64,000 nucleotides of DNA from Bacilli bacterium (GTDB lineage: Bacteria > Bacillota_I > Bacilli_A > RFN20 > CAG-449): the NCBI GenBank assembly GCA_048359995.1, contig DBGCPK010000010.1, positions 9,860-73,859 of the forward strand. Direction: 5' to 3'. Shown piece after piece: positions 1-60,835 of the stretch. Made by a program: the position numbers and the translations under genes. Every line of letters starts with the position of its first letter. Within the stretch, counting starts at the first letter, position 1. The notes beneath the pieces were generated by a model. The model had not been told where the DNA came from and ran no database searches. It was given only the letters and a program-made list of their open reading frames with translations.

Positions 1-825
1 ATGGCAGACAAAACGACACCAAAAAATAGAGATGAACAGGAAATTGCAGGGTATCGTGACGTGCTTGGTATTATCCATGAAAGTTTTGATGCAGTTCCAA
101 TAACGCCAAATTATATTCTTCAACTACACAAGGTTCTTTATAGTTATATGCGAAATCCAAGTGCCGGAAAGACTAAGAGTGTGCAGAATTATATAAGTGC
201 CACATATCCCGATGGTAGAGTGGAAACAATTTTTACTCCGCTAGATGCATTTGAAACACCAACAGCACTGCAATCAATTTGTGATGAATATAATCGAGTG
301 ATAGGAAATATGGAAGTAGAACCATTGATTGTTATTCCAACATTTATTCATGACTTTCTTTGTATCCATCCATTTAATGATGGAAATGGAAGAATGAGTA
401 GATTACTTACTACTTTACTTTTATACCATAATGGTTTTTATGTGGGTAAGTATATTTCATTAGAAGCCAAGATAGCAAAAAATAAAGACTTGTACTATGA
501 TGCTCTTGGTCAAGCACAATGTGGATGGCATGAAGGAACGGAAGATGTAACGTCTTTTATTAAATATCTACTAGGCACAATTCTTTCTGCATATAAAGAT
601 TTTGAAGAACGTTTTGCACTTGTAGAAACTAAACTTCCTGCTATTGAAATTGTAAGACGTGCATCAATGAATAAAATTGGAAGATTTAAAAAACAAGATA
701 TTATCGAACTTTGTCCTTCACTTAGCATTAGTTCAGTCGAAGGTGCATTGCGTAAATTAGTGGAATATGGAGAGCTAAAACGTGAAGGCAATGGCAAATC
801 CATTTGTTATTTTAAATTAAAATAG
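1..825 (+). CDS. Fic/DOC (Fido) family protein with a winged-helix-like C-terminal tail; N-terminus may be cut by the window edge
   Basis: Canonical Fic motif HPFNDGNGRMSR (HxFx[D/E]GNGRxxR) at aa 123-134 (nt 367-402). The ORF begins at base 1, so the true start is uncertain. No [ST]xxxE[GN] inhibitory motif found in the 274 aa present. Confidence 0.85.
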   Translation: MADKTTPKNRDEQEIAGYRDVLGIIHESFDAVPITPNYILQLHKVLYSYMRNPSAGKTKSVQNYISATYPDGRVETIFTPLDAFETPTALQSICDEYNRVIGNMEVEPLIVIPTFIHDFLCIHPFNDGNGRMSRLLTTLLLYHNGFYVGKYISLEAKIAKNKDLYYDALGQAQCGWHEGTEDVTSFIKYLLGTILSAYKDFEERFALVETKLPAIEIVRRASMNKIGRFKKQDIIELCPSLSISSVEGALRKLVEYGELKREGNGKSICYFKLK

Positions 826-893
826 AATACCCTTAATTTTAAAGTTTCCCCTTAAAACAATTATTAAAATAAGGGAAATCAAGCGTGAATGTG

Positions 894-925
894 AGCATCT
901 ATCGAAAAGGTAGGTGCTTTTATTA
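894..925 (+). terminator. Candidate intrinsic terminator after the Fic gene
   Basis: Arms agcatcta (894-901) and taggtgct (911-918) pair with one G-U, followed by a short T-rich run. Confidence 0.45.
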
Positions 926-1062
926 TGTCAAAATTCAAAGGAGGAAACCACATGGGAATATTTAAAAAGAAAGCAAGAGATAAACCACAAAAAAAACTAT
1001 AGGCGGTTCCTATTCATTTTTTTATGGGTGGTCAAGTACAGGAAAATCAGTAACTGAACGAA

Positions 1063-1952
1063 GTGCTATGCAATGATGCGATTAGGTTTATCAAAAGAAT
1101 GAGAGAACAAAAATCAAGGTATGTATATCCACAATGTAGAAAACTAGATAGAATGCGAAAGTACTATAGTGATAAAAAGATAGTTGAAGGTCTAAAGTAT
1201 TGTCTAAGCATTGAAGTATGTACAGTAATTGAATTAAGTTCTTGGCTAGTAATGGATATGGGAATAGATATTGCTAAACCAAGCATACATACTATTAGAC
1301 ATTATAAAGATAGAGCATTAGAAATAGAAAAGGAGTTAAAAGGAAATGGCAGAAGCTAAAGAAATACAACAATCAGCTAGAATTCTTAATTTACAGAATA
1401 TCGCTAATGGTGAAATTGATTTAAATGATGAAAAACTTTCTAATAAAGATTACATCTATAGTATTCTTTTACAAGAAGTCAATATTAGAAATGCTAATAA
1501 ACTTAAAGATATAAGAAAACAGGCAAGACTTCCTGAAAAGGTATTTGACAAGACTAGAATCACAGAAGGATTAAAATGGCAATTAGATAAACTAAGTTTA
1601 TTTGATTTTGCCTCAGCTAGAAAACAGCTTTATCGTTGGAGATTGTTCTACAGGTAAAACATCACTTGCGGTAACAATAGGAAATGAGGCTGTTGAAAAA
1701 GGTGCTAGAGTTATTTACATAAAGTTCGATGATTTGCTAGAAGAACAAAAATTAAAAAAGAAAATATGGAATTACATATTAAATGCAGATTTAGTTATTG
1801 GAGATGAACTATTTTATATGACACCAACAGAGGAAGAATTAGAACAAGCCTATAAGATTATGATGTTTTTACATGAAACAAGAAGCTTGATACTCATTAC
1901 GAATTCGCATTTAGTTGAAACACTTCAAAAAAGATTAATACACGGAGCATAA
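1063..1952 (+). mobile_element. IS21-family remnant: istA 3' end plus a frameshifted istB-like helper ATPase
   Basis: ORFs 1346..1657 and 1602..1952 together read as an IstB/DnaC-like ATPase (Walker A GDCSTGKTS, then DLVIGDELFYM) split by a frameshift in the 1602-1657 overlap. ORF 1063..1359 overlaps the istB start, as istA 3' ends do. No intact transposase or terminal repeats seen. Confidence 0.6.
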
Positions 1953-2307
1953 CTTGATAATAATTTGATCAGTTGGCTCAAGCATATCTGCTTTCTTCTT
2001 GAACCAAGTGACAAGACTGTTATCCTTTTGAACGAGGAAACACAATCGAAACATGTTCCTACGAATTATTCTCACAAAATGCTGAAAAGGTTGCAATGAG
2101 TGAGAATAAAACCGTATATAGGGGGTAGGGGAGGTCAAATCTCTACACCTATTTTAAGGGGACATCGGGCTGGGGTTTCGTGTGTAAAAATTGGAGTTCA
2201 AACGATTTTTAGATTTATGGGAATGCCCCAAACAAAGGTATCTCAAAACCAAAATCAAAAGTTTTTATTGACGATATTATACCTGATGGAATTTAAAAAA
2301 ATACACA

Positions 2308-2390
2308 AATTGAAAATTTCGGCATTTTGCGACAAAAACAATTTGAAATTTTCGGCAAATTAAATAGTATAAAATTTGAAATTTTCGGCG
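2308..2390 (+). repeat. Three direct repeats (consensus AATTTGAAATTTTCGGC) spaced about 32-33 bp apart
   Basis: Copies at 2308-2325, 2339-2357 and 2372-2390, immediately upstream of a -10 element and the ATPase gene at 2428. Confidence 0.8.
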
Positions 2391-2395
2391 ATGCA

Positions 2396-2404
2396 TGATA
2401 TAAT
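2396..2404 (+). promoter_or_regulatory. Extended -10 promoter element (TGaTATAAT) for the DUF4143 ATPase gene
   Basis: tgatataat at 2396-2404, GGAG at 2417-2420, ATG at 2428. Confidence 0.4.
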
Positions 2405-2427
2405 GGTATCAAAAATGGAGGTTTAAT

Positions 2428-3768
2428 ATGGCTGAAAGAATTTTTGAACGTAAAATATATCAAAAGATGTTAGATTGGAAGAGGGATTTTGATGGAAAAA
2501 CCGCTCTTTTGATTAAAGGTGCGAGACGTGTCGGTAAATCTACAATAGCAGAAGAATTTGCTCAAAAAGAATATTCAAGTTATATTCTTATAGATTTTTC
2601 TATTGCATCTAAGGAAGTACATGATTTATTTAAAGATTTGTCGAATTTAAATTATTTATTCTTACGTCTTCAACTCATTTATCATGTGAATTTAGAAGAA
2701 AGAAAATCAGTTATTATTTTTGATGAAGTTCAAAGAGAACCTCTCGCTAGGCAAGCGATTAAACATTTAGTAAAAGATGGAAGATACGATTATATTGAGA
2801 CTGGCTCACTATTATCTATAAAAAAGAATGTTGAAAAAATTGTTATTCCAAGTGAAGAAACAAGAATTGAAATGGTGCCTATGGATTATGAGGAGTTTCG
2901 TTGGGCGTTAGGGGATAAAACTACAATTCCTATGCTTAGAACTGCTTTTGAAAATAGAGTATCATTAGGTGATGATATTAATCGAAGAATGATGCGTGAT
3001 TTTAGGCTATATATGTTGGTTGGAGGAATGCCTCAGGCAGTAAACGAATATATAGATACAAATAATTTCAGCAAAGTGGATCAGGTAAAACGTTCCATAT
3101 TAGAACTATATCAAGATGATTTTAGAAAAATAGATACAACAGGAAGAGCATCATTGATGTTTTCGGCAATCCCGTCAGAACTTGCCAAAAGTGCATCAAG
3201 ATACCAAGTGTCAAGTGTTATTGCTAATGAAAAACCTGATCGAGTGCTAGGAATTGTTGCGGATATGAAAGATTCCTTGACGGTTACGATTGCTTATCAT
3301 GCAAATGACCCTAGTGCAGGAATGTCATTACACGAAGATATCGGTAGATATAAAATGTTCGTGGGAGATACGGGATTATTCACGACACTTGCGTTTATGG
3401 ATAAGAATTTTACAGAGAATGTTATCTATGAGAAACTTTTGAGTAACAAACTTGATACTGATTTGGGATACCTATATGAAAATATGGTTGCGCAAATGCT
3501 GTATGCAACAGGTAATAAATTGTTTTACTATACATTCCCTAAAGAGAATTCAAGTCATAACTATGAAGTCGATTTCTTAATTGCAAAAAGGAACAAGATA
3601 TGTCCTATTGAAGTAAAGTCTTCAGGATATAAAACTCATGCATCTATTGATGCGTTTATAAATAAGTTTTCAGGTAAAACAGGACAAAGATATTTAGTGT
3701 ATACTAAGGATTTAAGAAAAGACGGCGAATTACTTTGTATACCGATTTATATGACAATGTTTTTATAA
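2428..3768 (+). CDS. AAA-family ATPase with a DUF4143-type, PD-(D/E)xK-like C-terminal domain
   Basis: Walker A GARRVGKST and Walker B IIFDEVQ. C-terminal YEVDFLI...PIEVKSSG resembles a D...ExK nuclease core. Length (446 aa) and layout are typical of AAA_14/DUF4143 proteins. Confidence 0.8.
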   Translation: MAERIFERKIYQKMLDWKRDFDGKTALLIKGARRVGKSTIAEEFAQKEYSSYILIDFSIASKEVHDLFKDLSNLNYLFLRLQLIYHVNLEERKSVIIFDEVQREPLARQAIKHLVKDGRYDYIETGSLLSIKKNVEKIVIPSEETRIEMVPMDYEEFRWALGDKTTIPMLRTAFENRVSLGDDINRRMMRDFRLYMLVGGMPQAVNEYIDTNNFSKVDQVKRSILELYQDDFRKIDTTGRASLMFSAIPSELAKSASRYQVSSVIANEKPDRVLGIVADMKDSLTVTIAYHANDPSAGMSLHEDIGRYKMFVGDTGLFTTLAFMDKNFTENVIYEKLLSNKLDTDLGYLYENMVAQMLYATGNKLFYYTFPKENSSHNYEVDFLIAKRNKICPIEVKSSGYKTHASIDAFINKFSGKTGQRYLVYTKDLRKDGELLCIPIYMTMFL

Positions 3769-4203
3769 AAATACTAAATTAAATATAATGGTCGAAAGCA
3801 TCAGAAGATTTATTAATGCTTATGGAAATTTTGGCTTCATATGTTTCTCTTTTTTAAGAGTAACTTTATTAATTCTTCTTTGCTTAATTCTTGGCCATTT
3901 ACTTCTTTTCTCATATATTTATTATGACAAAAAATGCCCGATTTTTCGAGCGTTTTAACTGTTTTTAATAAAAATCTTTATATCATTAGGATTAAAAGTA
4001 TAAAAAATCCGAACGAAAAAACACAGTAGATTAAAAAACTAATGAGTCACCCTTTCTGGAGTCTATTTTAATCAAACAGTTTCAAAGAGAATGATTTTTA
4101 ACAAAAATAAAAAGAAATCTAAAATAGCTTCTAAATGACTGCTTCTGATCTCTAAATTTTGGTGCAAAGGAATATTCCATACTCTACCAATTCGATAATA
4201 ATT

Positions 4204-4212
4204 GGGGGGGGG
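4204..4212. repeat. G9 homopolymer (C9 on the minus strand)
   Basis: Read directly: attggggggg gg. It stands out in DNA that is otherwise extremely AT-rich. Confidence 0.95.
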
Positions 4213-4404
4213 TTATCGTTATCATAAAGATTTGCAAATCTACTCATTTTTTCGATACTACGCACAGTATGTAGGTTCATTGTTATTGTTATACGGCAAT
4301 ATAGCGTTTCTCCATTATAATCGAATTTTATAAATTCATCTAGGTCGTATTTTTTATATACTCCTTATTAGCCAAAATTAAAATTTTTTTGTTTTTTGTC
4401 ACAG

Positions 4405-5035
4405 CTATTTATCGAGCAACCAATCTGCAATTTCAATAATTCTGACACCATCATATTGATACTCAGAATCTCGTGTTCTTGAAATTATCATCTTAGGATA
4501 AGCATCGTTAATTTTGAGAAGTGGTGATACTTCTCTTTCAAGTGTTTTTTCTTCGGTGATGTTATCCGAAACTTGAATATAGATTTTTTCGTTATGTTTA
4601 ATCGCCACAAAATCTATTTCTTTCTTATATAAAACACCGACATACACATCATACCCTCTACGGAGCAACTCTATTCAAGTATTCTGCCTCTATCAAGGTT
4701 TTTAGTGCCAAGTTTTGTATAGCGAAATGTATGGTCGCTTAAATAATATTTATCATTGGTAGAAAGATATATTTTTTACCCTTAATATCGTATCTACGAA
4801 CTTTATAGAAAGCAAAGGCATTACAAAGATACTGCATATATGAGCCAACTGTTGTGTGATGTATCTTTTCTTGAACTTTACTCAATGTGGCTGTGATATT
4901 TCTTGCAGAAGATAAATTAGAAATATTGTTATAGAAAATATATGGTAGGAAGGTAAGCGGTGGTTTCAGATGATAATGCTGATGTTCCATATGCAGAATA
5001 TACAAAACAAGATTTCGATAAATATTTAATGTCAA
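4405..5035 (-). pseudogene. Decayed, N-terminally deleted DUF4143-type ATPase
   Basis: ORF 4739..5035 (..ISNLSSARNITATLSKVQEKIHHTTVGSYMQYLCNAFAFYKVRRYDIKGKKY) and ORF 4405..4668 ([29 protein letters not shown]) match the middle and C-terminal parts of DUF4143 ATPases. They lie in different frames, and no AAA domain remains upstream. Confidence 0.7.
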
Positions 5036-5141
5036 TGTTTATAAGCCATAAATTAGACTGTTTATGTACTCAATTATGGATGTAATCGGCTTTTTAGCAT
5101 AACAACTGTTAAACTCGAGTATTTTTATTATGTTTATTATA

Positions 5142-5150
5142 TGTTATAAT
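5142..5150 (+). promoter_or_regulatory. Extended -10 element (TGtTATAAT) upstream of the jetA-like gene
   Basis: tgttataat at 5142-5150, ACGGAG at 5165-5170, ATG at 5180. Confidence 0.35.
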
Positions 5151-5179
5151 TGATACACGAAGAAACGGAGCACTGACTT

Positions 5180-6544
5180 ATGGAACTATTTAGCGCGGTT
5201 AATCCTAGACTATTTAGTATTTTAAATTGCCCAAATCAATCTATTTATGCAAGTATTATTATTGAATTGTACACATATATTGATGAATTAACTGATAAAA
5301 ATGAAAATACAAAAGGCAATGTTAAAGAAAAAATAAATCAAATATTATTGCGTAAAGTTTTATACGCTTGGGACGATGATCTTTCATCCGATACTAAATC
5401 ACGTGCCAATATTATTTATAATCGATTAAAAAATGATGGATGGATATTTGAAGAACAACAGGAGAACTTTGAATATCAAGTTAATTTTTATGATGCACCA
5501 AGAAGGATTATCGAAAGCTTAATTGGCATCCAAAATAATGAAAGTATTCCCTATAGTGGAATTGTTACTTCAATTAGAAATAAACTTGATAATTTAGATC
5601 CAAATAAAGATTTATTAGAAATAATGGAATTGATTCATAGTGATATTAAAAGAATGTCAATTGAATTGAAAAGACTTAGATCAAACATCTACACTTATTA
5701 TGAAAGTATCATTAAAGCTCGAGAAAATGACTTTGAAACTTTAAAAGAAGAATTAATCGCAAAATATCAAAAAACTTTTTTCGAAAAGGGATATTATAAC
5801 CTAAAAGTAAATGAAACATATGTTCGTCATAGGAAAAGCATTTTAAGAGATTTGAAAACTATTAAAGATGATGATGCTTACCTATTAAAAATGAAGGAAA
5901 GTAAAATTGATGCTAACGATAAAAGATATAATTCTTTTGAAAAAGCAAACGCTTATGTGATTTCATTAATGGAAGAATCAATCGATTTATTTGATGGCAT
6001 CAAAAATACCATTTTACAAATTGATAAAAAGAATAATGCATATTTAAATGTTTTATTATCAAAAATTAACTTTCAAATAAATCGCTCCGATTCATTAGAA
6101 GGCATCATTAATCGAGTCCTAGAAGAAATTGTAAAAAATGATGATGTTGAAATTACTCCATATTTAACTCAATGCATTCCGTTAACTTGCGAATCTCTTT
6201 CTCAACCAAGAAAAGAAGCATATAGAAGTCAATACCAACAAATTATTGAAACTTTAGAAATACCTAAAAATTTAAAAGAAGAATTTGAAAGGAATATGTT
6301 AATAAATAAAGAGTATTCTTATGAAGAAATATTGCATCAAGCTAATCAATTAGTGGAGAATAAAAAATCAATCAAAGTATCGGAACTTGAGATCAATGAT
6401 TATCGAGATTTAGTGAAAATTATATTGATGCTTACCTACTCAACATCAAGTGATTCAAAATATAGTTTTTTTATTCTAGATGAAAAGATGGTAAGGGTTG
6501 GTGTTAAGTTTAATGATATGGAAATAAGAAGAAAAAAGAAATAA
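5180..6544 (+). CDS. jetA: JetA-like (kleisin/MksF-like) subunit of a Wadjet-type system
   Basis: Assigned by position and size (454 aa, first gene of the 4-gene operon) and helical K/E/N-rich composition. I could verify no diagnostic motif by eye. Confidence 0.55.
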   Translation: MELFSAVNPRLFSILNCPNQSIYASIIIELYTYIDELTDKNENTKGNVKEKINQILLRKVLYAWDDDLSSDTKSRANIIYNRLKNDGWIFEEQQENFEYQVNFYDAPRRIIESLIGIQNNESIPYSGIVTSIRNKLDNLDPNKDLLEIMELIHSDIKRMSIELKRLRSNIYTYYESIIKARENDFETLKEELIAKYQKTFFEKGYYNLKVNETYVRHRKSILRDLKTIKDDDAYLLKMKESKIDANDKRYNSFEKANAYVISLMEESIDLFDGIKNTILQIDKKNNAYLNVLLSKINFQINRSDSLEGIINRVLEEIVKNDDVEITPYLTQCIPLTCESLSQPRKEAYRSQYQQIIETLEIPKNLKEEFERNMLINKEYSYEEILHQANQLVENKKSIKVSELEINDYRDLVKIILMLTYSTSSDSKYSFFILDEKMVRVGVKFNDMEIRRKKK

Positions 6545-6709
6545 TAATTAAATGAAAATTCAGTTACTCGAAAATTTTGAATAACTGATAATAAAACTTA
6601 TAGTGGTCAAACATTTAATTTACAAATTGTTATCGTTGTTTGGTTAAAATGAAATCTAGAAAACATATCAAAAATGTAAAAATTACATGAAGTAAAGGAG
6701 AAAATAAAC

Positions 6710-7345
6710 ATGGATAAAATGGATTATTGTAATAGATTTTATGAAGGATATAAATTATTTAATGAGCGAGAACAAGATAAATTTAAAGTGATTGTTAATT
6801 TACTTTTACAAAAAAATTTTTATGTTTATAGTCTTTATTCGCTAGATGATTATAATTTTATGATTAAGAATTTTGATGTTTTAGAAGCTTATTTTGATTT
6901 AATGGGAGTAGAGTTAATCAACGCTCAAGTCGATCAAGTTATCTATATCAAAAACAATATTGCTAAGAAGTTAAAGTTCTCAAAACTTGGAACTTTAATC
7001 TTTTTAATTTTATATAAAACCTATTTGACGAAAAAGCAAAATATTTCTCTTTCAATGTATGCAACTGTATCAATTTCTTTTTTTGAATTATGTAACGAGC
7101 TTGCGAGCATTAATTATTTTAAAAATGCGAATGTTAAAGAAATTGATATTAAGGATGAGCTCCAAATTTTAAAAAGTTATAATATCGTATCCTTTTCTTC
7201 AACAAAGGAATACCAATATATCGATATAAATATTAATCCTACAATTAAATATGTAATTGATAGTAATGAACTTGTTGAAATAGACCATAAAATTGCTTCA
7301 CTAACTGGAGGAAATAGCGATGAAGAAACACTTATCGAAAATTAA
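6710..7345 (+). CDS. jetB: JetB-like (MksE/KITE-like, DUF4194-type) subunit
   Basis: 211 aa, second position, and its stop overlaps the jetC start by 26 nt. Assigned by size and synteny. Confidence 0.55.
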   Translation: MDKMDYCNRFYEGYKLFNEREQDKFKVIVNLLLQKNFYVYSLYSLDDYNFMIKNFDVLEAYFDLMGVELINAQVDQVIYIKNNIAKKLKFSKLGTLIFLILYKTYLTKKQNISLSMYATVSISFFELCNELASINYFKNANVKEIDIKDELQILKSYNIVSFSSTKEYQYIDININPTIKYVIDSNELVEIDHKIASLTGGNSDEETLIEN

Positions 7346-10300
7346 ATTAATTAACTGGATGTATTTTACAAATACAACCATCGTTTCTAATGGAAATACC
7401 ATTATTACCGGAATGAATGCATCTGGTAAGTCAACAATAGTTGATGCAATTCAACTTGCATTAATTGCAGATAAAAGAAAAGTAAAATTTAACAGTGCCG
7501 CTGACTCTGAAGGTAAAAGAGATGTTAAAAGCTACGTTCGCGGTGAGATTAATACTGAAGAAATATCATGTTTAAGACCTGGGGATGTTGTTTCTCACAT
7601 TGTTTTAGAATTTCTTTCTGATAATGGGCCAGTAATCATGGGCGTGGTAATTGAATTAAATAATGGAATTGATGAAATGCACTTTTATAAAGCAAATAAT
7701 GTTAGGGTTTCTGATCAATTTTATTTAGATGATGAAAATAAACCTAATGATTTTGCTAAGCTAAAAAGTGCTTATGAAAAGTATTATGTTGAATTTGAAT
7801 ATTTAAGCGCGGTTGATTATCGTCGCGCGCTAGCTTCTCAAATGGGAGTTGAAGAAAAATATTATGATAAGTATATATCTTTATTAATTGCCTCAATTGG
7901 TTTTAAATCGGTAAGTAAAGTTGATGACTTTATCAATAACTTCTTATTTTTAGAAGATAATATCGATGTTTCTGAATTAAGAGAAAATAATGCTAAACTA
8001 ATTAGTTTAAAAGCATCCTTAGAAGAAAATAATTTGAAAGCAACAAAATGTCAAGAAATCATAGATTTATGCACAAAGTATAGTGAAATTGATATTAAAA
8101 ATAATAAAAACGAGTTGTTAAAAAAGAAATATCAGCTTGAAAAGAACCGAAGTAATCTTGAAAAGCAAAAAAGAGAAAAAATAAAAGTTAATTCTTTGTA
8201 CAATAAGAATGTTTCTGACATTGAATTATATAAAAAAGAAAAGCAAAACCTTGAAGATCAAAAAGAAGCTGCTCAATGTGATTTGGAAGATTCGGATAAT
8301 AATCGCCAAATTAAAGAAGCAAAAAGGCAACTTCAAGAAACTGAAAATGAACTTAATAAGAGTAAACTCATTTTGTCTTCCGTAGCGTCACAGATAAAAA
8401 ATGTTTACGATACCGGTAAGCAATTAAATGATTTACTTGAAGGAAACAATAATACTTTTGAAAAAATATTAATTAAAATTGCAGATAACTTAAATACTCC
8501 AGAAAAGATTCCGCCTTATTTAAAAGATTTTGGTGAGTGTATTGACTCAATTAAAGAAGAATATATTCAAAAAAAATTTGCCGACTCGCAAAAACTTATT
8601 GAAATAAATAAATCTATCAAAGAAACTAACTTAAATATTAAAAAATTAAGAAGTAATCAAAAAGTATTTAGATCTGACTTTAGTCAACTTATTAAATATC
8701 TAAAAGAACAATTATTTGATAAATTTGGTAAAGACATTGTAGTTAAACCATTATGTGACTATGGACAAATTTTAGATGAAGAATGGCGTAATGCAATCGA
8801 AGGCTATTTAAACACTCAGCGTCTAGCTTTAATTATTGAGCCAGATTATGTTTTAGATGCAGTTAAATTATACAAGTATTATTATACAAATATTGATTCA
8901 AATATTTCCTATGAAATTGTTGATACTACTAAATTGAATATGGATTATCAAATCGATGAACAAACCCTCGCCTCTAAGGTTCGCTTTAGCAATAAATATG
9001 CTTCTGCTTACGCTCAATTTATACTAGGAAAAGTATATTGTGTTGACGATGAAGAACAACTTAATAAATATGAAGTTTCTATTACTAAAGACTGTATTAG
9101 ATATAAAAATTTTACTTATGCAGCAATAAAACAAAACGTCTATAAAAATCCCTTAATTGGAAATGGGGCAATTGAAGTTCAATTAAAAAAAGAAATCGAA
9201 AACTTACAATTACTTGAAAATCAAAGAATTCCAATAGATGAGTCACTTAATAAAGATGTTAAGATTATTGAACTTTGCCATCAAACTGATGCAAAAAGTA
9301 TTGATATTGAAAGATTAAATCAATTTGAAACCGTTAAAACCTATCAACAAAAAATTAAGAATTTGACAAGTAAAATCAATAGACTTGAGCAAGTTCCTTC
9401 ATTTGGTCGGCCATTTGAATTATCTCAAATTATTGATAATTTAAAATCTGAAATTGCTCGTCTTGATGAAAAAATTAATAAAGCAAATTATGATAAGGGG
9501 AGTAACGAAAATATACTGAGCAATATTGATAAATCAATTGAAAATTATCGCGCAGATGATACTAAATTAAAAAATGAATATAATGAACTATTTTCTAAAA
9601 CAAGTAATGTGTCTCCAAATGATGAAATTTGGAGTGAAGAAGAGATTTTAAATTATGAAAATAATCAAGATGTAATCAATCGTAAGATCAATGAAAATAA
9701 AAATAACCTATATAAATTACATAACTCGATTGTAAAAAAGAAAACCGAATATAACCAGAAATACTTTTTCAATGCTGATTGTAGTTCTGATACAGCTGAT
9801 GAATATCGTATTGAATTAAATAAAAAGATTGCTCTTGAAGGGAATGAACTAAGTGCTAGTGTACAAACTCTTCATAAAAAGAATATTACTATTTTCAAAA
9901 AAGAATTTATGTCTAAACTTAAGTGGAAATTTGATGATATGGATGACATAGTTGAAAGTTTAAATTTTAACCTTAGATCTAATCCATTTGATAAAGATCG
10001 ATACTCTATTTCAGTTACTAAAACCGATGACCCTGAATTAAATGCCTTATATGATATTATTAATTCTGATGATACATACGAAACCGGCTTATTTGAAACC
10101 GAAGAATCATCAAAGAATCGATTATTTTTAGATAACTTCTTTGAAAGAATGGCAACCCTTGACTCAAAAGATGAAATCGAAAGATTACAAGATTATCGTA
10201 AATATCGAAAATTTGATGTTATGATTCAATCAAATTATGAAGAAAACGGCGTATTAAAGCATAAAACTAGATATTTATCTCAAGTAAAAAAACAACAATC

Positions 10301-10601
10301 TGGTGGTGAAAATCAAGTACCATTTTACATTTTAGCAGCTGCTTCATTTCAGAATCTTATATCCAGAAAAAGAAAAGAAAATGATAGCGTTTCAATTGTT
10401 CTATTTGACGAAGTGTTTAACACTATGGATGCAAATAGAATCGAGTCAATGTTAGGATTTTTTAAAAAATTAAATGTTCAAATTTTCATGGCTCTAACCG
10501 CTGAAAAGGTCCCAAATATGTGCAAATATATGGATACTACAAATGTTATTTTTAGAGATGGAAATAACGCCTTTGTAGAGGAGTTTACAAATGAAAAATA
10601 A
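7320..10601 (+). CDS. jetC: JetC-like SMC/MksB-type ATPase
   Basis: N-terminal head with Walker A GMNASGKST (aa 31-39). A coiled-coil-like K/E/N/L-rich middle of roughly 900 aa. C-terminal QQSGGENQVPFYIL (ABC signature) and VLFDEVFNTMD (Walker B). 1093 aa. Confidence 0.85.
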   Translation: MKKHLSKIKLINWMYFTNTTIVSNGNTIITGMNASGKSTIVDAIQLALIADKRKVKFNSAADSEGKRDVKSYVRGEINTEEISCLRPGDVVSHIVLEFLSDNGPVIMGVVIELNNGIDEMHFYKANNVRVSDQFYLDDENKPNDFAKLKSAYEKYYVEFEYLSAVDYRRALASQMGVEEKYYDKYISLLIASIGFKSVSKVDDFINNFLFLEDNIDVSELRENNAKLISLKASLEENNLKATKCQEIIDLCTKYSEIDIKNNKNELLKKKYQLEKNRSNLEKQKREKIKVNSLYNKNVSDIELYKKEKQNLEDQKEAAQCDLEDSDNNRQIKEAKRQLQETENELNKSKLILSSVASQIKNVYDTGKQLNDLLEGNNNTFEKILIKIADNLNTPEKIPPYLKDFGECIDSIKEEYIQKKFADSQKLIEINKSIKETNLNIKKLRSNQKVFRSDFSQLIKYLKEQLFDKFGKDIVVKPLCDYGQILDEEWRNAIEGYLNTQRLALIIEPDYVLDAVKLYKYYYTNIDSNISYEIVDTTKLNMDYQIDEQTLASKVRFSNKYASAYAQFILGKVYCVDDEEQLNKYEVSITKDCIRYKNFTYAAIKQNVYKNPLIGNGAIEVQLKKEIENLQLLENQRIPIDESLNKDVKIIELCHQTDAKSIDIERLNQFETVKTYQQKIKNLTSKINRLEQVPSFGRPFELSQIIDNLKSEIARLDEKINKANYDKGSNENILSNIDKSIENYRADDTKLKNEYNELFSKTSNVSPNDEIWSEEEILNYENNQDVINRKINENKNNLYKLHNSIVKKKTEYNQKYFFNADCSSDTADEYRIELNKKIALEGNELSASVQTLHKKNITIFKKEFMSKLKWKFDDMDDIVESLNFNLRSNPFDKDRYSISVTKTDDPELNALYDIINSDDTYETGLFETEESSKNRLFLDNFFERMATLDSKDEIERLQDYRKYRKFDVMIQSNYEENGVLKHKTRYLSQVKKQQSGGENQVPFYILAAASFQNLISRKRKENDSVSIVLFDEVFNTMDANRIESMLGFFKKLNVQIFMALTAEKVPNMCKYMDTTNVIFRDGNNAFVEEFTNEK

Positions 10602-11775
10602 TTACTATTATTATTTATTAAATATATTAATAAATAAATATGAAAAAAGATTCTTTAACTATGCCCTTAACATTCGAAAGATAACGATCAAGTTTAATGA
10701 AAAAGAATTAAAAGATTATGTTAGTGATGGTAGCTATAAATACCGCTCTTCGATTGAAAATGCAGTGGAAGAATTAGTTAATCAGAATATCATTAAAGTA
10801 ATCTATGAACGTGGCAAGGTTATCGACTATATTTTTCTTAATATCGATCAAATAGATAAAGCTTACGAAGAATTAAATAAAGAAAACATTATCATTACTT
10901 GGCAAAACTACTTAAATGCCATTAATAATGGAACGTCAAAACTATCAAAATCAATATTTTATAAAATAAACTCTATTTATAATAATCATCAAGGAATTAA
11001 AACCTATTTAAATGATTATAAAATCATTGAAACAATCATTCACTGCATTGATGAATTAGAAAATAACCAAATTGATATATTATTACGAGATTTTAGTGTT
11101 AAAGTATTTGATGATAGTAAGTATCTAGAAAATAATTTATCTACGATCAGAAAATATTATAGGTTAGTGGGAATCGACAATGATGATGATAATGAAACTT
11201 TCTTAAAAAAAAGGCACATCTACAAAAATCCGATTTCAATAATAATCAAAGGAAATGCATTGATTAAGGTAAATCAACAAGTTATCGATCTTAGTGCTTA
11301 TAATTCCCCATTACATTTATATAAAGAAGGAATTGAAAACATTACTTTTCTAAACATTTCAAATAATATCGTGACAACAATTGAGAATAAAACTACCTTT
11401 TTTGATTATCATGAGGATGGTTTAATTGTTTTTTTAGAAGGATTTCCTAATTCAATGGCAATTAACTTACTAAAAAAAATCAATTCTAATCTATCGTCCA
11501 TAAAATTTAATCATTTTGGAGATATTGATTTAGGCGGATTTAAAATTTTTAATTATTTATGTGAACAAACTAATATTTTATTTAATACGATCCATATGGA
11601 TATTGATACTCTAAAAAAATATAAGAATAAACTGACAAGAGTTAAAGATAAATCATATTATCAAGAATTAAATTCCTTAAAATATTTAAAATATGTCGCA
11701 AGGTATAGTGATGTTATCGACTATATGATTGAAAATGAGGTTATTTTAGAAGAAGAAATACTATATGCGCAATAA
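10591..11775 (+). CDS. jetD: JetD-like Toprim-domain nuclease subunit (DUF2220-type C-terminus)
   Basis: TTIENKTTF (Toprim Glu) followed by HFGDIDLGGFKIFNYL (DxD) in the C-terminal third. 394 aa. Overlaps jetC by 11 nt. Confidence 0.8.
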   Translation: MKNNYYYYLLNILINKYEKRFFNYALNIRKITIKFNEKELKDYVSDGSYKYRSSIENAVEELVNQNIIKVIYERGKVIDYIFLNIDQIDKAYEELNKENIIITWQNYLNAINNGTSKLSKSIFYKINSIYNNHQGIKTYLNDYKIIETIIHCIDELENNQIDILLRDFSVKVFDDSKYLENNLSTIRKYYRLVGIDNDDDNETFLKKRHIYKNPISIIIKGNALIKVNQQVIDLSAYNSPLHLYKEGIENITFLNISNNIVTTIENKTTFFDYHEDGLIVFLEGFPNSMAINLLKKINSNLSSIKFNHFGDIDLGGFKIFNYLCEQTNILFNTIHMDIDTLKKYKNKLTRVKDKSYYQELNSLKYLKYVARYSDVIDYMIENEVILEEEILYAQ

Positions 11776-12416
11776 CTTTTATTCTCTTAATTTCGATAAT
11801 ATTTTTATCAAAAATCAGACTTGGCGATAAACTCACTCAAATCTAAGACCTTTTAACCTAAAGAATAAGGTGGGGAATGAAAAGTTTCTTTCTACAAAGA
11901 GACAATAACCAAAGCGTTGTATAGAGACACAAAAAGAAACATCAAAAGCGGAGAATCAAAAAACGCAGTGGAAGAGTAAGCGATGAGGAGCTTACTCGTC
12001 TTTTGTATCATGACTTGGCACCTATGGGAGTGCAACAAGAAATACCACGGAATTTCAAAGAAAAAGACGGAGATATTCATAGATAAAGCATTTCCTGAAG
12101 GAATTTTGTTAATCTAAAAAGTAAAAGCAACAAAAAGGTGCAAAATGAAAATGTTGCGAAATAAATGAATAAACAGAATAAACGCATCAATAAAATAAGC
12201 AAAAAATATATTGAGAGATCTAAAAGATAAAATGGCATTGAATGGATGTATTTCTTATGAAATAAAGAAGGATATACACCAAAAAATATTATTTATCTAA
12301 TGAAGTGTCTTGATGGAGTAATAATACAAAGATGATTGCAATAATATTTTGTAGGTAAGGAAGAAAAACCTTAAGATGAGAATATAATATTTAAAAAGAA
12401 GAAATAAAAGCAATAG

Positions 12417-12448: not shown

Positions 12449-12910
12449 TTAAAGTCCAGAAATATGTTTCAAAGTTTTTCTAACATCAAATGAATACTTT
12501 GGTGAATTATCAAATTGCAAAGGAATATCGTAATATGATTCTTTAGTATTGTTTTTAAATAAGAAGTTATTATATTTTGCATTCATGAGATCACAAAGTT
12601 TATCAAGAGAAGAAGTAGTAAATGTATTAGGCTTTTTATCTAATCTATCGGAAAAGTAATGAGAATTAATACATTCTTGTGAGTAGCTTAAGTAATCTTT
12701 ATTAAACCAGTTTCTAATTGAATTATGATTTTTGATAAGAAGGTTATAAAGGACTTTATAATCATTATCTTGGGAATCTTTAGGAATGGAATCTAAAGTG
12801 TTGATATAAGCTTCAACATACGAATCAAAATGAGATAAATCACCAAAGAATAATTTTTTCTCCAATAATTTTAGTAGCAATTCTTTGAACATGAAATTTA
12901 TCTGGAACAT
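12449..12910 (-). CDS. Hypothetical protein (153 aa), no recognisable motif
   Basis: Clean ORF in the AT-rich island with composition like its neighbours. Function unknown. Confidence 0.4.
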   Translation of the reverse strand: MFQINFMFKELLLKLLEKKLFFGDLSHFDSYVEAYINTLDSIPKDSQDNDYKVLYNLLIKNHNSIRNWFNKDYLSYSQECINSHYFSDRLDKKPNTFTTSSLDKLCDLMNAKYNNFLFKNNTKESYYDIPLQFDNSPKYSFDVRKTLKHISGL

Positions 12911-12927
12911 AAACGGACGTTGAATTA

Positions 12928-13119
12928 TTGGAAAAAATCATAATCAATTGTTTGGGAACGGGCGAATTCTTTGTGAATAAAGCCATTGGTTGGGCTTTAA
13001 GAGAATATTCAAAGACTAACTCCGATTGGGTGAAAAGCTTTATTGATAAATATAAAAATCAAATGAATGATTTAAGTATCAAAGAAGCAAGCAAATATTT
13101 AAAAAATGACAATACTTAA
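12928..13119 (+). pseudogene. 3' stub of a DNA alkylation repair (AlkD-like HEAT-repeat) gene
   Basis: FFVNKAIGWALREYSKTNSDWVKSFI...LSIKEASKYL matches the conserved C-terminus of AlkD-like proteins. Only about 63 codons remain. Confidence 0.6.
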
Positions 13120-15427: not shown

Positions 15428-15859
15428 ATGAACAAGAAAACGCAGAGAAAAATCGAGAGACAAATCAAAAAAACGCACCCTTTGACCAAAGCGGTCGTCG
15501 CTTTGTGTTTTATGGCTTCTCTGGCAGGAACTTTTTTTGTCAGTTGGTCGATGCAGAAAGACGATTGTTTTGTCCTTCTTGGCGAATCGATTGTAACGAT
15601 GAATGTCGGAGGAAATTATGTCGAGCCGGAACGAAAGGAAGCGGTCAAATGCGTGTTTTTCGGAAAGGACGTTTCGTCTTCGGTTCGGATTAACGAAGAA
15701 GAAACTACGTACGATCCGGTGCTTTCTCCGAAGACGGAAGGAACGTATTATATCGTATACGAAACGGATAATTTCAAATATTCCGGAATCCTGCGCATAA
15801 GGACGATAAAAGTCAGCGCGGTGGATACGAATGAAGACGGGATCGGTGAAGAAGAATGA
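15428..15859 (+). CDS. Membrane-anchored protein with an Ig-like (DUF5011-like) ectodomain
   Basis: N-terminal TM segment, then a G.Y.EP...GTYYIVYETDN pattern. ATGA overlap with the next gene. Confidence 0.5.
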   Translation: MNKKTQRKIERQIKKTHPLTKAVVALCFMASLAGTFFVSWSMQKDDCFVLLGESIVTMNVGGNYVEPERKEAVKCVFFGKDVSSSVRINEEETTYDPVLSPKTEGTYYIVYETDNFKYSGILRIRTIKVSAVDTNEDGIGEEE

Positions 15860-16986
15860 AAAAGGCGAAGAAAAAGAGCAGATTTTCTCTTGGAAAGACA
15901 TTGGGATTGTCGTTAGTCGGCGCACTTCTCGGTGGCTTATTGGGTGTCGGATCTTCGGTAACCTACGCTCTGATCGACGTAAAAACCGATGAAAAAAAGA
16001 TGAACTCGGTTACCGGAGTCGTTTATGACGATTTTCAGATTCACTTTATGGAATTGGGGAACATCTACGCCGGAGATTCGATTTATATCAAGGCAGGAGA
16101 AAACGACATTCTGATCGACGCGGGATCGCGTGCTTCTTCAAAGACGACGATCAAGAGTTATGTCGATCGTTATTGCGAAGACGGGAAGTTGGAATATGTG
16201 ATTGCTACACACGCACATCAGGATCACATCGCTGCATTCGGTTGTGCCGACGGAATTTTTTATTCTTATGAAATCGGGACGATCATCGACTTTCCTTTGA
16301 CGAATTCCAAAACGAGTACGTATCAAGCTTATCGTGAAGCGAAAGAGTATGCAATTGCTCGCGGTGCGGTCAATTATTCCGCATTGGATTGCTGGAACGA
16401 AATCGGCGGAGCGAAAAGAACTTATGCGCTCGGAGAAAACATTACGATGCAGATTCTCTACAATACGTATTATGAAACGGCGACGACAAACGAAAACGAT
16501 TATTCGGTTTGTCTGCTTTTGACTTGCGGAGAGTATAAATTTTTGCTGACCGGAGATCTCGAAGCAAAGGGAGAGGAATATTTTGTCGAATATAATAAGG
16601 AAACGATCAAGGATTGCACGCTTTTCAAGGCGGGGCACCATGGATCGTATACCGCTTCCGGCGAAAAACTTTTGGAAACCGTCCGCCCGGAAATCTCGGT
16701 TTGCACTTGCGTATGCGGTTCGACCGAATATACGAAAAACAACATGAACACGTTTCCGTCTCAGGCGTATATCGATCGTATCAGCGCCTATACGTCTCAA
16801 GTTTACGTTACCAGCCTCTGCACCGATTACGAAAGTGGAGACTATACTTCGATGAACGGAGATATCATCGTCAGCAGCGATTCCGCGAACGTCGGCATAG
16901 CCTGCTCGAAAGATACAACACCACTTAAAGATACTTCGTGGTTTAGGGAAAACCGTACCTGTCCTTCGGCTTGGTTGAACGGGTAG
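15856..16986 (+). CDS. Membrane-anchored extracytoplasmic MBL-fold hydrolase (ComEC C-terminal-domain-like)
   Basis: N-terminal TM segment. HxHxDH motif THAHQDHIAAF. Later GDLE and KAGHHGS motifs typical of ComEC/Rec2-type beta-lactamase-fold domains. Confidence 0.75.
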   Translation: MKKAKKKSRFSLGKTLGLSLVGALLGGLLGVGSSVTYALIDVKTDEKKMNSVTGVVYDDFQIHFMELGNIYAGDSIYIKAGENDILIDAGSRASSKTTIKSYVDRYCEDGKLEYVIATHAHQDHIAAFGCADGIFYSYEIGTIIDFPLTNSKTSTYQAYREAKEYAIARGAVNYSALDCWNEIGGAKRTYALGENITMQILYNTYYETATTNENDYSVCLLLTCGEYKFLLTGDLEAKGEEYFVEYNKETIKDCTLFKAGHHGSYTASGEKLLETVRPEISVCTCVCGSTEYTKNNMNTFPSQAYIDRISAYTSQVYVTSLCTDYESGDYTSMNGDIIVSSDSANVGIACSKDTTPLKDTSWFRENRTCPSAWLNG

Positions 16987-42408: not shown

Positions 42409-43029
42409 ATGCAAAAACCGATATTAATCTGCGTTGCGGGAGGTTCTGCAAGCGGGAAAACGACGTTAGTGAATGAAATCGCCGCCGCATTTCACGGAAA
42501 GGATATCGTTATTCTCAAACACGACGACTATTATCGCGATCAATCGCATCTCAGTCTGGAAGAAAGAAAGAAAACCAATTACGATCATCCGAGTTCTTTG
42601 GAAAACGAGTTGCTGATCCGACATTTGAAGGATTTGCTGAATGGAAAAAGCATTGACAAACCGATTTATGATTTCGTCGCGCAGACACGAAGTCCGGATA
42701 CGGAAAAAGTTAATCCGGGCAGAGTGGTGATTCTTGACGGTATTTTGGTTTTGGAAGATCCGGATATTCGCGCTTTGGCTGACATCAAGGTGTTCGTCGA
42801 ATGCGATGAAGACCTTCGCTTAATTCGGAGAATCCGTCGAGATATGATCGAAAGAGGCCGTTCGTTTGACGGAATCATTCATCAGTATCTGAGTACGGTC
42901 AAACCGATGTATCATAGTTTTGTCTCTCCGAGCAAGAGATACGCGGATATTATCATTCCAAACGATTTTTCGCATTCGGTGGCTACCGATTTGCTGATTG
43001 AAAAAATCAAGTCGATTTTGGATAAATAG
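42409..43029 (+). CDS. udk: Uridine kinase
   Basis: ILICVAGGSASGKTT; DDYY; ILDGIL; RRIRRD. ATG at 42409 preferred. Confidence 0.9.
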   Translation: MQKPILICVAGGSASGKTTLVNEIAAAFHGKDIVILKHDDYYRDQSHLSLEERKKTNYDHPSSLENELLIRHLKDLLNGKSIDKPIYDFVAQTRSPDTEKVNPGRVVILDGILVLEDPDIRALADIKVFVECDEDLRLIRRIRRDMIERGRSFDGIIHQYLSTVKPMYHSFVSPSKRYADIIIPNDFSHSVATDLLIEKIKSILDK

Positions 43030-43069
43030 TTGATTATTTCCGCCGTTTATTTTATGATAATAGGGCAAT

Positions 43070-43145
<76 letters not shown>

Positions 43146-43147
43146 TT

Positions 43148-43181
43148 TAAAAAAATGTATGGATAAATCCATACTTTTTTT
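43148..43181. terminator. Bidirectional-looking intrinsic terminator
   Basis: A-run, gtatgga / taaa / tccatac, then T7. Confidence 0.7.
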
Positions 43182-43227
43182 AATAGATGATACAGAAATG
43201 ATACGGGTTTTTAAAGAAAAAGGGGAA

Positions 43228-43990
43228 TTAAATCCCCGAATTTAATAGATCAATTAACTGATCGATTTTGTCAATAATTGCTTTTTGCCTTTCTTTCGTC
43301 ATATCGATATAAACGTCCATAGTAACGTTATGAAACTTATGTCCGAGATACTTTCCGATGTCTTCAAAGGATATTCCTTCGGAGTAGAGATAACTGGCTA
43401 TCCCGTGTCGCAGTCCATGCGGAGTAATGTGTTCCAGTTGATGAGTTTCTTCCAAATGATTCAAATACCTTCGGACCGATGTTCCTGATATCGGATTGTC
43501 TTTCTTTCGGATATAGAACAAGCGATGAACATCTTTCAAACGATGCGTTTCGACATAATTTTGGAAAAGCGCAATATACTTGTCGGAAAGAAGATACTTT
43601 CTTATCGACGATGCGCTTTTCGGAACAAGATCGATCGACTGATTCAAACCGCATTTGCAAGTGGTTACTTTATAAATCGATAAAATCTTTTTATTTAGAT
43701 CGAAGGCTTTGACTTCCAATCCACGAACCTCGGATTCATAATTCTTTCTTTCGATGATTTTTATAGGATTCTACAAGGTCAAAAAAATAAAAATCTTTCT
43801 GAATCGCCTTTTTCTTTGAATCCTTCTGATGATTTGACGATCCTTCTATACGAAAGAGAGCCTCGGCTTGAACAGTCTCTTTTCTGGAAGAGAATCCTCT
43901 ACGAAGGAACTGACGTCCGTTGATCGAGCATTTAAAGAACCACGTTCCGTTTTTGCTTTTATACGCTGGCATAATCATTAGAAATTCCAT
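43228..43990 (-). pseudogene. Tyrosine recombinase (phage-type integrase), disrupted and internally shortened
   Basis: ORF 43736..43990 is an Arm-type N-terminus (YKSKNGTWFFKCSINGRQF). ORF 43228..43719 is the catalytic domain (HGLRHGIASYL ... LGHKFHNVTMDVYIDM). The two are in different frames and most of the core-binding domain is missing. Confidence 0.75.
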
Positions 43991-44214
43991 CTCGAACGAT
44001 ATAGCCAGTCACTGGCCAAATCCCGTTCGTCACTACCGCCGGAACGATCGCTGCATGTGAGATCGGAAACAAATTGCTCGATGATTCTTCTCGGCGTGAC
44101 CTTCCAGTTTTCATCTGATACAAAATTTGCCGCCAACCATATCGAAAGATATTCTGCATGGTCTTTCAAACATTCATACTCTTCTTCCGTTAATTCAATC
44201 TTTATTGTTTTCAT
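43978..44214 (-). CDS. Small hypothetical protein next to the integrase remnant
   Basis: AAGGAGG precedes the ATG (MKTIKIELTEEEYE...). 78 aa. No motif recognised. Confidence 0.4.
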   Translation of the reverse strand: MKTIKIELTEEEYECLKDHAEYLSIWLAANFVSDENWKVTPRRIIEQFVSDLTCSDRSGGSDERDLASDWLYRSRWNF

Positions 44215-44458
44215 TCTTTTTCCTCCTTGGTTTAAAAATTTTTCTTTGATTATTTGATGCAATCGCATATAATAAAAGAGCAAAAGGTTGTCATCAGATA
44301 ACCAGGCTCCGCCCTAAGGGGCATCACCCGCAAGGGTGATTTTTCTTATTTCTTTATTTTCTTTTCCTCCTTGTTTTTTTTCATTTCGATTGCATATACT
44401 CTGATTAGAGATACGTCGAATAAGCACTTGTTCACAAGATTGCGACGCGTCTCTTTTA

Positions 44459-44760
44459 TTATCTTTTAAAATTACGTTTGATCTTTCGCACCATCTTCTT
44501 ATCGGCAGCGCTTAATCGATAATTCTTTAATCGCTTTCTTTTGAAATTTTTCTTCTTATCATGCGTACTGAAAGGACGCAAATAACTTATTCGCGAATCA
44601 TTCGGATTTGGATTCACTTCAATTTCTTATTACTCAAACCATAAGTAACCGGAGAATGATTAAACCGATATACTTGTATTCATCCTTTTGTTCGTCGTAA
44701 ATCAACGCCGGATGCCCATTCTTTTTATGAGTTCGAAAAGTGTGTTTTAATCTTTTTCAC
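44459..44760 (-). pseudogene. Frameshifted small mobile-element-type gene
   Basis: AGGAGGT plus a GTG start. It reads ..HKKNGHPALIYDEQKDEYKYIGLIHSPVTYGLSNKKL, and after a frame change ..VNPNPNDSRISYLRPFSTHDKKKNFKRKRLKNYRLSAADKKMVRKIKRNFKR*. Confidence 0.35.
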
Positions 44761-45182
44761 TTAACTTACCTCCTTTCGCTTTTTTCGGATTTAGGGATTG
44801 ACATTTCTTCTCAATTTCTCTAAAATTCTTATCAAGAAGAACCTTGTGACCTTCAAAGCGTCGCGTGGCTAAAAGCAATTGAATTGCCAGCCGATTCTTC
44901 TTTTTTTATTTAGAAATTTTTTTTATCGTTTTCCGATAACTTCCATCCTTTTTTAGAACCGAATGTACTTCTGTTTTGTACTTTTGTTTTCTGTCTGAAA
45001 TACGTCTTTCTTTTATCGCATGGATTGGGATTTTTCTAAGGGAATAAAAATGCCGAACTTCTTTTGAAACCAAGAAAAGAGTATGGAATTACCTCGCGTT
45101 AAAAAAGCTTAAATAAAGTTTTCATCGCTTTTCGTATTGCTTTACAAAAGAATTTCGTTTAAATTATAGAATATATCGTATT

Positions 45183-58134: not shown

Positions 58135-58219
58135 GGGGATATGGCGAAATTGGCAGACGCGTTAGAATCAGGATCTAATGTTGAAAGACGTGACGGTTCG
58201 AGTCCGTTTATCCCCACCA
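58135..58219 (+). tRNA. tRNA-Leu (anticodon CAG)
   Basis: Hand-folded: acceptor ggggata/tatcccc, anticodon arm ttaga-ATCAGGA-tctaa, long variable arm, T-arm gacgg-ttcgagt-ccgtt, encoded CCA. 85 nt. Confidence 0.9.
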
Positions 58220-59030: not shown

Positions 59031-59049
59031 TCCCGTAAAGATAGGTTCT

Positions 59050-59110
59050 GTAGAATCTAATGGGGGTATTATGGGGCAGGAAAAATAAGATTACGTAGAA
59101 TCTAATGAGG
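59050..59110 (+). repeat. Direct repeat GTAGAATCTAATGRGG, two copies
   Basis: Copies at 59050-59065 and 59095-59110 with one mismatch. Confidence 0.7.
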
Positions 59111-59190
59111 TCAAAGACAGATAATATAAAAATTGAAAATTTATGATATAATCTAAACGAAAGGTAGATAGTAATTTGACGGAGTGACAG

Positions 59191-60801: not shown

Positions 60802-60835
60802 ATGCTCATAAATAAACTATTTGAAGGAGGTAATT

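Follow-up and report, generated by a model that had tools for sequence, protein, structure and literature searches.

A four-gene SMC/Toprim locus that very probably forms an intact type I Wadjet operon within a composite low-GC defence island

We analysed four co-directional genes in a 64,000-nucleotide (nt) stretch of DNA from a Bacilli bacterium (GenBank assembly GCA_048359995.1, contig DBGCPK010000010.1, positions 9,860 to 73,859 of the forward strand; hereafter the window, in whose coordinates all positions are given) and conclude with considerable confidence that they constitute an intact and complete type I Wadjet operon, jetABCD. Wadjet systems are also known as MksBEFG or EptABCD. An initial annotation, made from the sequence letters, had proposed a complete set of JetA, JetB, JetC and JetD, and this proposal was borne out by profile searches, by profile-to-PDB matches and by fold comparison. 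The best PADLOC matches of all four proteins were to type I models, and nearly the whole profile was covered in each case. JetA and JetB, which had been placed only by their size and position, are true members of their families, as evidenced by a match of JetA to PF18982 and by a match of JetB to DUF4194 together with a JetB/MukE fold. With subunits of full length and intact catalytic residues, the locus is apparently functional.

The third gene, jetC (7320..10601, + strand), encodes an SMC/MukB-like ABC ATPase of 1093 amino acids (aa) that was recognised by PADLOC, by Pfam and by a profile comparison with the PDB. The PADLOC model JetC1 (PDLC00519) matched with an E-value of 6.3e-213 and a score of 708 bits, aligning residues 3-1093 with positions 2-1089 of its 1097, and the Pfam families AAA_29 (62.3 bits) and SbcC_Walker_B (68.2 bits) were both above their curated cut-offs. 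The protein carries the features of an SMC/MukB-like ATPase, namely a Walker A motif (GMNASGKST, 7410-7436, aa 31-39), a hinge motif (WRNAIEGYLNTQR, 8784-8822, + strand), a signature motif (QQSGGENQ, 10293-10316, aa 992-999), a Walker B motif (VLFDEVF, 10398-10418, aa 1027-1033) and a long coiled-coil arm. Across 20 JetC homologues we found invariant Walker A residues (G31, G36, K37 and S38), signature residues (S994, G995, E997 and Q999), Walker B residues (D1030 and E1031) and a D-loop aspartate (D1037). A single-sequence search against E. coli JetC aligned the N-terminal head only. When a profile built from 20 sequences (A3) was compared with the PDB, the JetC of E. coli GF4-3 (8as8) matched at 3.2e-51, with profile positions 3-1080 aligned to residues 14-1081, and that of P. 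aeruginosa PA14 (8dk2) matched at 1.1e-37; weaker matches were obtained to MukB (2.7e-17) and to the type II JetC of Neobacillus vireti (9qe0, 1.7e-14). Distant JetC homologues with a named source came from Erysipelotrichales, Thomasclavelia and a phytoplasma.

The fourth gene, jetD (10591..11775, + strand), encodes a Toprim nuclease of 394 aa, an assignment that draws on PADLOC, Pfam and fold evidence. PADLOC JetD1 matched residues 3-392 at positions 2-406 of 409 (1.4e-75), and Pfam JetD_C matched above its curated cut-off (5.5e-18, 65.4 bits). The protein consists of an N-terminal arm and a Toprim domain with the conserved glutamate (IENKTTF, 11380-11400, aa 264-270) and DxD motif (HFGDIDLGG, 11512-11538, aa 308-316), and a C-terminal acidic motif, ILEEEIL, lies at 11743-11763 (+ strand). 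Residues E265, N266, H308, D311, D313, G315, G316, E387 and E389 were invariant in 21 JetD homologues. A single-sequence search of the PDB with JetD returned no relevant match; a deeper alignment and a structural model then succeeded. The profile from the 21-sequence alignment (A2) matched the Toprim region of Topo VI-A (2zbk), and Foldseek comparison of an AlphaFold2 (AF2) model (predicted local distance difference test score, pLDDT, 91.8) retrieved the Spo11 core complex (8urq, 1.6e-8), P. aeruginosa JetD (7til, 7e-8) and Topo VI-A (2zbk and 2q2e), with a Foldseek probability of 1.00 for Spo11, 7til and Topo VI-A. The Toprim fold expected of the fourth open reading frame (ORF) was thus recovered in the model.

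The second gene, jetB (6710..7345, + strand), encodes a KITE (MukE-like) subunit of 211 aa that matched Pfam DUF4194 (6.3e-13, 49.2 bits against a cut-off of 32.7) and PADLOC JetB1 (1.4e-24). A search with JetB gave 109 cluster representatives (E ≤ 1e-3), and for a profile of 70 sequences (A7) the three top-ranking PDB matches were all solved JetB structures (8dk1_E at 1.2e-4, and 9qxt_C and 8as8_C at ~3e-3). The AF2 model of JetB (pLDDT 89.3) matched PA14 JetB best (8dk1_E, 2.2e-7; template modelling (TM) scores 0.67/0.78), followed by MukE and then by E. coli JetB, in keeping with a tandem winged-helix subunit of the KITE/MukE-like kind. Near the JetB N-terminus the sequence RFYEGY (residues 9-14; 6734-6751) is identical in three JetB proteins of the clade, one of which is only 39% identical overall. 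In P. aeruginosa an N-terminal IFDR motif of JetB is reported to contact JetD (PMC10586767). The first gene, jetA (5180..6544, + strand), encodes the kleisin-like subunit of 454 aa; it matched Pfam PF18982 over residues 46-452 at positions 17-434 of 434 (5.9e-50; 170.5 bits, cut-off 26.2) and PADLOC JetA1 over residues 1-452 at positions 3-466 of 467 (1.1e-52). The initial annotation had named DUF3375 as the JetA family, to which there was no match at E ≤ 0.01; the family present here is PF18982/DUF5716.

The full-length matches to type I models, set against a match of the type II PADLOC model JetC2 that reached only 1.1e-4 (JetC1, 6.3e-213), identify the system as type I Wadjet. The NCBIfam model TIGR02680, which we take to be the type III JetC family, scored 15 bits against a cut-off of 463, and both the PADLOC best matches and the structure-profile scores favoured type I over types II and III. 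We considered whether the operon could instead be a divergent Wadjet subtype with an altered target range or mechanism, as the initial annotation had suggested on the grounds that profile tools might score such biased sequences weakly. Beyond a small clade that shares 69-87% identity, the nearest proteins reach only ~36%, the composition is extremely biased toward K, I and N, and NCBIfam gave no match for JetA, JetB or JetD. The expected weakness of the profile tools did not materialise, however: the existing JetC1 sub-model aligned end to end at 708 bits, and the JetA1, JetB1 and JetD1 models span the full proteins. Only NCBIfam (for JetA, JetB and JetD) and single-sequence PDB searches were blind to the locus. 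Protein lengths equal those of the solved type I proteins (JetC, 1093 aa versus 1096 aa in E. coli), and no extra domains or genes occur in the operon. A divergent subtype is therefore highly improbable, and the locus, judged by its fit to existing type I sub-models from end to end, is not one.

A second alternative, that the genes encode a chromosome-organising condensin of the MksBEF/MukBEF kind rather than a defence system, has its basis in genuine homology. MukBEF and MksBEF share the SMC-kleisin-KITE architecture with JetABC, the JetB model has a MukE-like fold and matches MukE, and JetC can be aligned with MukB over its heads and a portion of its arm, as seen in the profile match noted above. 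MukBEF has no nuclease subunit, however, and its MukB is ~1480 aa long and serves a chromosome-organising role. A condensin would be expected as a three-gene operon without a nuclease, whereas here jetC shares 11 nt with jetD, the gene for the JetD/MksG Toprim nuclease that marks Wadjet and that MukBEF lacks. With a nuclease gene inside the operon, the MukBEF reading does not hold; moreover, JetC fits the solved Wadjet JetC far better than MukB, and the operon has a foreign composition and a place in a defence island. We regard a condensin as exceedingly improbable, and what follows treats the genes as a type I Wadjet operon.

The coordinates of the four ORFs on the + strand (5180-6544, 6710-7345, 7320-10601 and 10591-11775, encoding 454, 211, 1093 and 394 aa) agree in every respect with the layout described at the outset, including the gene sizes, the 26-nt overlap of jetB and jetC, the 11-nt overlap of jetC and jetD and the 165-nt gap between jetA and jetB, which is the only departure from the tight gene linkage of Wadjet. 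Each of the five quoted motifs (GMNASGKST, QQSGGENQ, VLFDEVF, IENKTTF and HFGDIDLGG) is present exactly once. The start of the system had been placed at 5142; that position is not a gene start, as the jetA ATG lies at 5180, and is instead the first base of the sequence TGTTATAAT. All four ORFs begin with ATG, end with TAA and are preceded by a GGAG-type ribosome-binding site 8-12 nt upstream. At a guanine-plus-cytosine (GC) content of ~26%, stop codons make up an estimated ~9-10% of random codons, and because a stop is expected in about one of every ten codons the ORF lengths are far beyond chance; for a 1093-codon ORF the probability estimated from composition is ~1e-47. Within the cassette the ORF listing showed no antisense ORF reaching 60 aa. 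The order jetA-jetB-jetC-jetD is common to the relatives L084-L091 (L001, L002 and so on denote the other loci with which the window was compared), and the overlaps joining jetB, jetC and jetD indicate translational coupling. In the source assembly the gene calls place the start of jetC 13 codons later (1080 aa; excluding 7320-7358) and that of jetB 3 codons later (208 aa; excluding 6710-6718). For JetC the longer start is favoured because the PADLOC profiles align from residue 3 and a conserved KIKLINW strand lies within the extra residues, and it is more likely to be the correct one.

The sequence TGTTATAAT (5142..5150, + strand), 30 nt 5' of the jetA start codon, was read as a putative extended -10 promoter box, and we infer that it serves as a promoter element of jetA. 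The box is partly kept in relatives, as TGGTATACT in L084 and TGTTATGAT in L090. About 200 nt 3' of jetD, a terminator-like hairpin with a T-run (11974..12007, + strand) was picked up by a consensus scan, weak evidence on which it might possibly be the operon terminator.

The untranslated jetA-jetB spacer of 165 nt (6545..6709, + strand) ends in the jetB ribosome-binding site AAAGGAG. In L084-L089 the spacer is absent, the gap being 3 nt with the jetB ribosome-binding site inside jetA, and in L091 a non-homologous spacer of 94 nt occupies the junction. The RNA structure predicted for the spacer was no more stable than that of shuffled sequences (z = -0.46), no Rfam family matched it at gathering score, no second copy was found in the window or in loci L001-L083, and no ORF longer than ~10 codons was found within it. 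These results, together with its lack of conservation in the relatives, gave no sign that the spacer is a functional element in its own right. With lengths of 3, 94 and 165 nt within the clade, the spacer would seem to represent neutral variation of the junction.

The nearest relative, L084, shares 86.5% identity in JetA, 82.5% in JetB, 80.8% in JetC and 68.9% in JetD, as well as the same jetB/jetC and jetC/jetD overlaps. Loci L084-L089 and L091 are metagenome contigs of an uncultured low-GC gut organism. Ratios of nonsynonymous to synonymous substitution rates (dN/dS) against the L084 orthologues were 0.07 for jetA, 0.11 for jetB, 0.10 for jetC and 0.15 for jetD, values indicative of purifying selection on all four genes. 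The GC content of the cassette is 26.1% as compared with 44.3% in the region 14000-59000 of the window, whereas in L084-L089 the operon (26.7% GC) resides in a genome of 28-29% GC between the housekeeping genes for DegV, ABC/FtsX, trigger factor and Lon. Nucleotide homology to L084 is confined to 5120-6533 (83%) and 6695-11766 (79%), which indicates that the operon and its promoter region were the transferred unit, and the agreement between operon and genome GC in L084-L089, along with the housekeeping neighbours there, suggests that the source was a low-GC lineage. We conclude that the operon was acquired horizontally from such a lineage and now resides in the ~44% GC chromosome of an uncultured gut Clostridia bacterium. 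A core gene nearby found its top matches in uncultured gut Clostridia at ~70% identity, and a megablast comparison of the cassette with PLSDB returned no match, leaving a plasmid origin unsupported. In L091 a 306-aa protein with a weak HNH_4 match (5727-6647 of that locus) follows jetD, and this neighbour is unlike those in the window or in L084. A more far-reaching idea is that this locus and L084-L091, which together make up an AT-rich clade, represent a separate sub-lineage of type I from low-GC gut Firmicutes that are uncultured, one that spreads between classes as nothing more than the four-gene cassette, with a lineage-specific regulatory element at the jetA-jetB junction, for example an internal promoter, setting the ratio of kleisin to motor; we consider this unlikely.

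A composite and scarred low-GC defence island contains the operon as one of its modules. Immediately to its left lies a 5'-truncated and frameshifted pseudogene of a PDC-S01-type ATPase of the AAA_14/DUF4143 family (4405..5035, - strand; PADLOC PDLC04787), in which the ORF at 4405-4668 corresponds to profile positions 323-408 of 412 (4.2e-31) and the ORF at 4739-5035 to positions 228-286 (1.2e-15); positions 1-227, the N-terminal ATPase part, are missing at the point where the jet cassette starts. We considered and rejected the idea that this stub had arisen by duplication of the intact ATPase gene nearby (2428-3768), since tblastn detected no significant similarity and the two match different PDC-S01 sub-models. 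To the right, ~670 nt of non-coding DNA 3' of jetD is followed by a fragment of an ISLre2-family transposase (12449..12910, - strand) that matched NCBIfam NF033529 at positions 231-331 of 382 (2.3e-6, below the cut-off, as a fragment), and then by what is left of the 3' end of an alkD-type gene for DNA alkylation repair (12928..13119, + strand), which matched positions 157-213 of the 213 in Pfam DNA_alkylation (1.1e-19). The alkD remnant marks the right edge of the island, beyond which GC content rises from 0.27 to 0.37-0.46, and the housekeeping and tRNA genes to the right identify the surrounding DNA as chromosomal. The window belongs to a metagenome scaffold of 352,572 bp (ENA ERZ28574532 scaffold_16) that also occurs in Logan SRR5930503. 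The 153-aa ISLre2 ORF abuts the truncated alkD within 17 nt (12449-12927), and the loss of both 5' parts at a single junction suggests a deletion scar.

Both flanking stubs reported in the initial annotation (4405-5035 and 12928-13119) are thus real, as the PDC-S01 and DNA_alkylation profile matches attest, and its proposal that the cassette had inserted as a unit between them held in part. Operon and promoter region do form a unit, just short of which the left stub ends, but on the right 1.15 kilobases (kb) of non-coding DNA and the ISLre2 fragment intervene before alkD, and leftward of the cassette the low-GC DNA runs on for no less than 12.7 kb, past the window edge. This DNA extends from ~13,100 leftward through the start of the window and for another 7.5 kb to the end of L002 (1-7573, record 270419-277991), the locus directly to the left, so that the island measures at least 20 kb in total and its left border lies beyond L002. 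No direct or inverted repeats that could represent attachment sites or terminal inverted repeats bracketed the cassette, matches being limited to 15 nt or fewer, at chance level. A search for an empty site by way of the neighbouring ZIP transporter gene yielded 80 loci of at most 72% identity, none of which had alkD or the other neighbours in synteny.

Across L002 and window positions 1-5035 the island also encodes MC7 and CTD11 as a gene pair, a helicase of 909 aa with a match to PDC-S53, a candidate defence system (9e-273), and a Fic protein of 348 aa, inside which the window begins and which matched SoFic (8.5e-37). A fragment of an rve integrase and the intact PDC-S01-type AAA_14/DUF4143 ATPase at 2428-3768 (8.9e-95) lie in the same stretch. 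Three short overlapping + strand ORFs at 1063-1952, including an IstB_IS21 fragment (1602-1952; Pfam 3.7e-12), look like a frameshifted IS21 remnant. Elsewhere in the window, a second low-GC patch (59000-62000, GC 0.29-0.31) begins ~800 nt after a tRNA-Leu(CAG) gene (58135-58219) and holds genes for a 324-aa FMN-reductase-like and NUDIX protein (59191-60165) and for the prolipoprotein diacylglyceryl transferase Lgt (61220-62032). Just after a tRNA-Lys(CTT) gene (43070-43145), GC content falls to 0.36-0.37 over 43000-45000 and the GC skew becomes negative (-0.18 at 44001-45000). At 15856-16986, in the host core, a 376-aa metallo-beta-lactamase-fold protein had a precomputed match to Apyc1 (Anti-Pycsar) graded as faint, and Pfam returned only Lactamase_B for it.

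Several observations weigh against an intact and active type I operon. The identity of JetA relies on profile evidence only; neither JetA nor JetB found anything in the PDB when single sequences or shallow three-sequence profiles were used, and while the deeper alignment and AF2 model resolved the placement of JetB, JetA stayed without a PDB match. The full-length JetD model reached Foldseek TM-scores of only ~0.4 and is not a rigid-body match, probably because arm and Toprim domain are differently oriented, in keeping with a flexible linker between them. JetD residue 388 is a glutamate (11752-11754), giving LEEE in place of LEQE, whereas at least 90% of the 21 homologues, the two closest among them, have a glutamine here; its neighbours E387 and E389 are the invariant ones. 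The 165-nt spacer removes the jetA-jetB coupling of the nearest relative and could shift subunit stoichiometry. The dN/dS values reflect long-term rather than recent constraint, since dS is near saturation (~0.9-1.4). Finally, the neighbouring genes are decaying into pseudogenes and insertion sequence (IS) fragments, and recent silencing is conceivable.

Taken at face value, such observations would fit an intact-looking relic that is silent or was recently disabled within a decaying island, whether by uncoupling through the spacer or by an unused, foreign AT-rich promoter. The neighbourhood, with its PDC-S01 ATPase pseudogene, its fragments of IS21 and ISLre2 and its truncated alkD, speaks for a relic, as do a spacer found at this locus only and the replacement of the nearly invariant Q388 of JetD. 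Yet the four ORFs are full length with respect to their profiles, with no frameshift or premature stop and with intact catalytic motifs; jetB retains a strong AAAGGAG ribosome-binding site; the 94-nt spacer of L091 implies that a jetA-jetB gap is tolerated in the clade; and dN/dS lies between 0.07 and 0.15 across the four genes. A silent relic is accordingly a decidedly unlikely explanation.

As an intact type I Wadjet operon, the locus can be compared with three described systems and with its own relatives. JetABCD of E. coli GF4-3 (PDB 8as8, 8bfn, 8q72 and 9qxr-9qxx) has the same four subunits and a JetC of nearly the same length, and its JetB is matched by both profile and fold, yet with only 12% identity in the structural alignment; unlike that proteobacterium, the host here is a Firmicute, and the operon is AT-rich and carries the 165-nt jetA-jetB spacer. 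JetABCD of P. aeruginosa PA14 (8dk1-8dk3; JetD, 7til) provides the best structural match for JetB and the best among solved JetD proteins, and its Toprim acidic residues are conserved here, with identities of 11-14% in the structural alignments. In Clostridium cellulovorans 743B, itself one of the Clostridia, jetABCD is a chromosomal four-gene Wadjet operon (PMC12287153), and it is the strongest functional precedent for a native host within that class. The relatives L084 and L091 differ in their jetA-jetB gap, as noted, and in that their operons match the GC content of their own genomes.

The mechanism proposed here follows by analogy that of characterised type I systems. JetC as the SMC ATPase, JetA as the kleisin and JetB as the KITE subunit would combine into a dimer of SMC motors, load onto DNA and extrude it at the expense of ATP. 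On a small circle (below ~50-100 kb) extrusion would run to completion, whereupon the two motors would meet and stall, and the bent DNA would be passed to the dimeric JetD Toprim nuclease for a sequence-independent cut, with the plasmid linearised and lost; on a large chromosome extrusion would remain incomplete and the DNA would be spared. The mechanism and the role against plasmids in native Clostridia are covered by a review (PMC10586767), by PMC12287153 and by 10.1101/2022.10.04.510915, 10.1101/2023.11.03.565488 and PMC10889018. In Bacillota, according to PMC12287153, jetABCD and plasmids smaller than 40 kb are almost mutually exclusive. By the same analogy, we predict that the host bacterium excludes small plasmids.

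For the mechanism of type I Wadjet the locus adds little that is new, as such systems have already been characterised structurally and biochemically. It does expose an annotation gap in AT-rich genomes, in which NCBIfam leaves JetA, JetB and JetD unnamed and PADLOC and Pfam recognise them, and it plainly illustrates the passage of a complete jetABCD operon from one lineage to another of widely differing GC content, where it lies in a defence island. The predicted resistance to small plasmids would matter for efforts to make this uncultured Clostridia lineage of the gut, or its relatives, genetically tractable.

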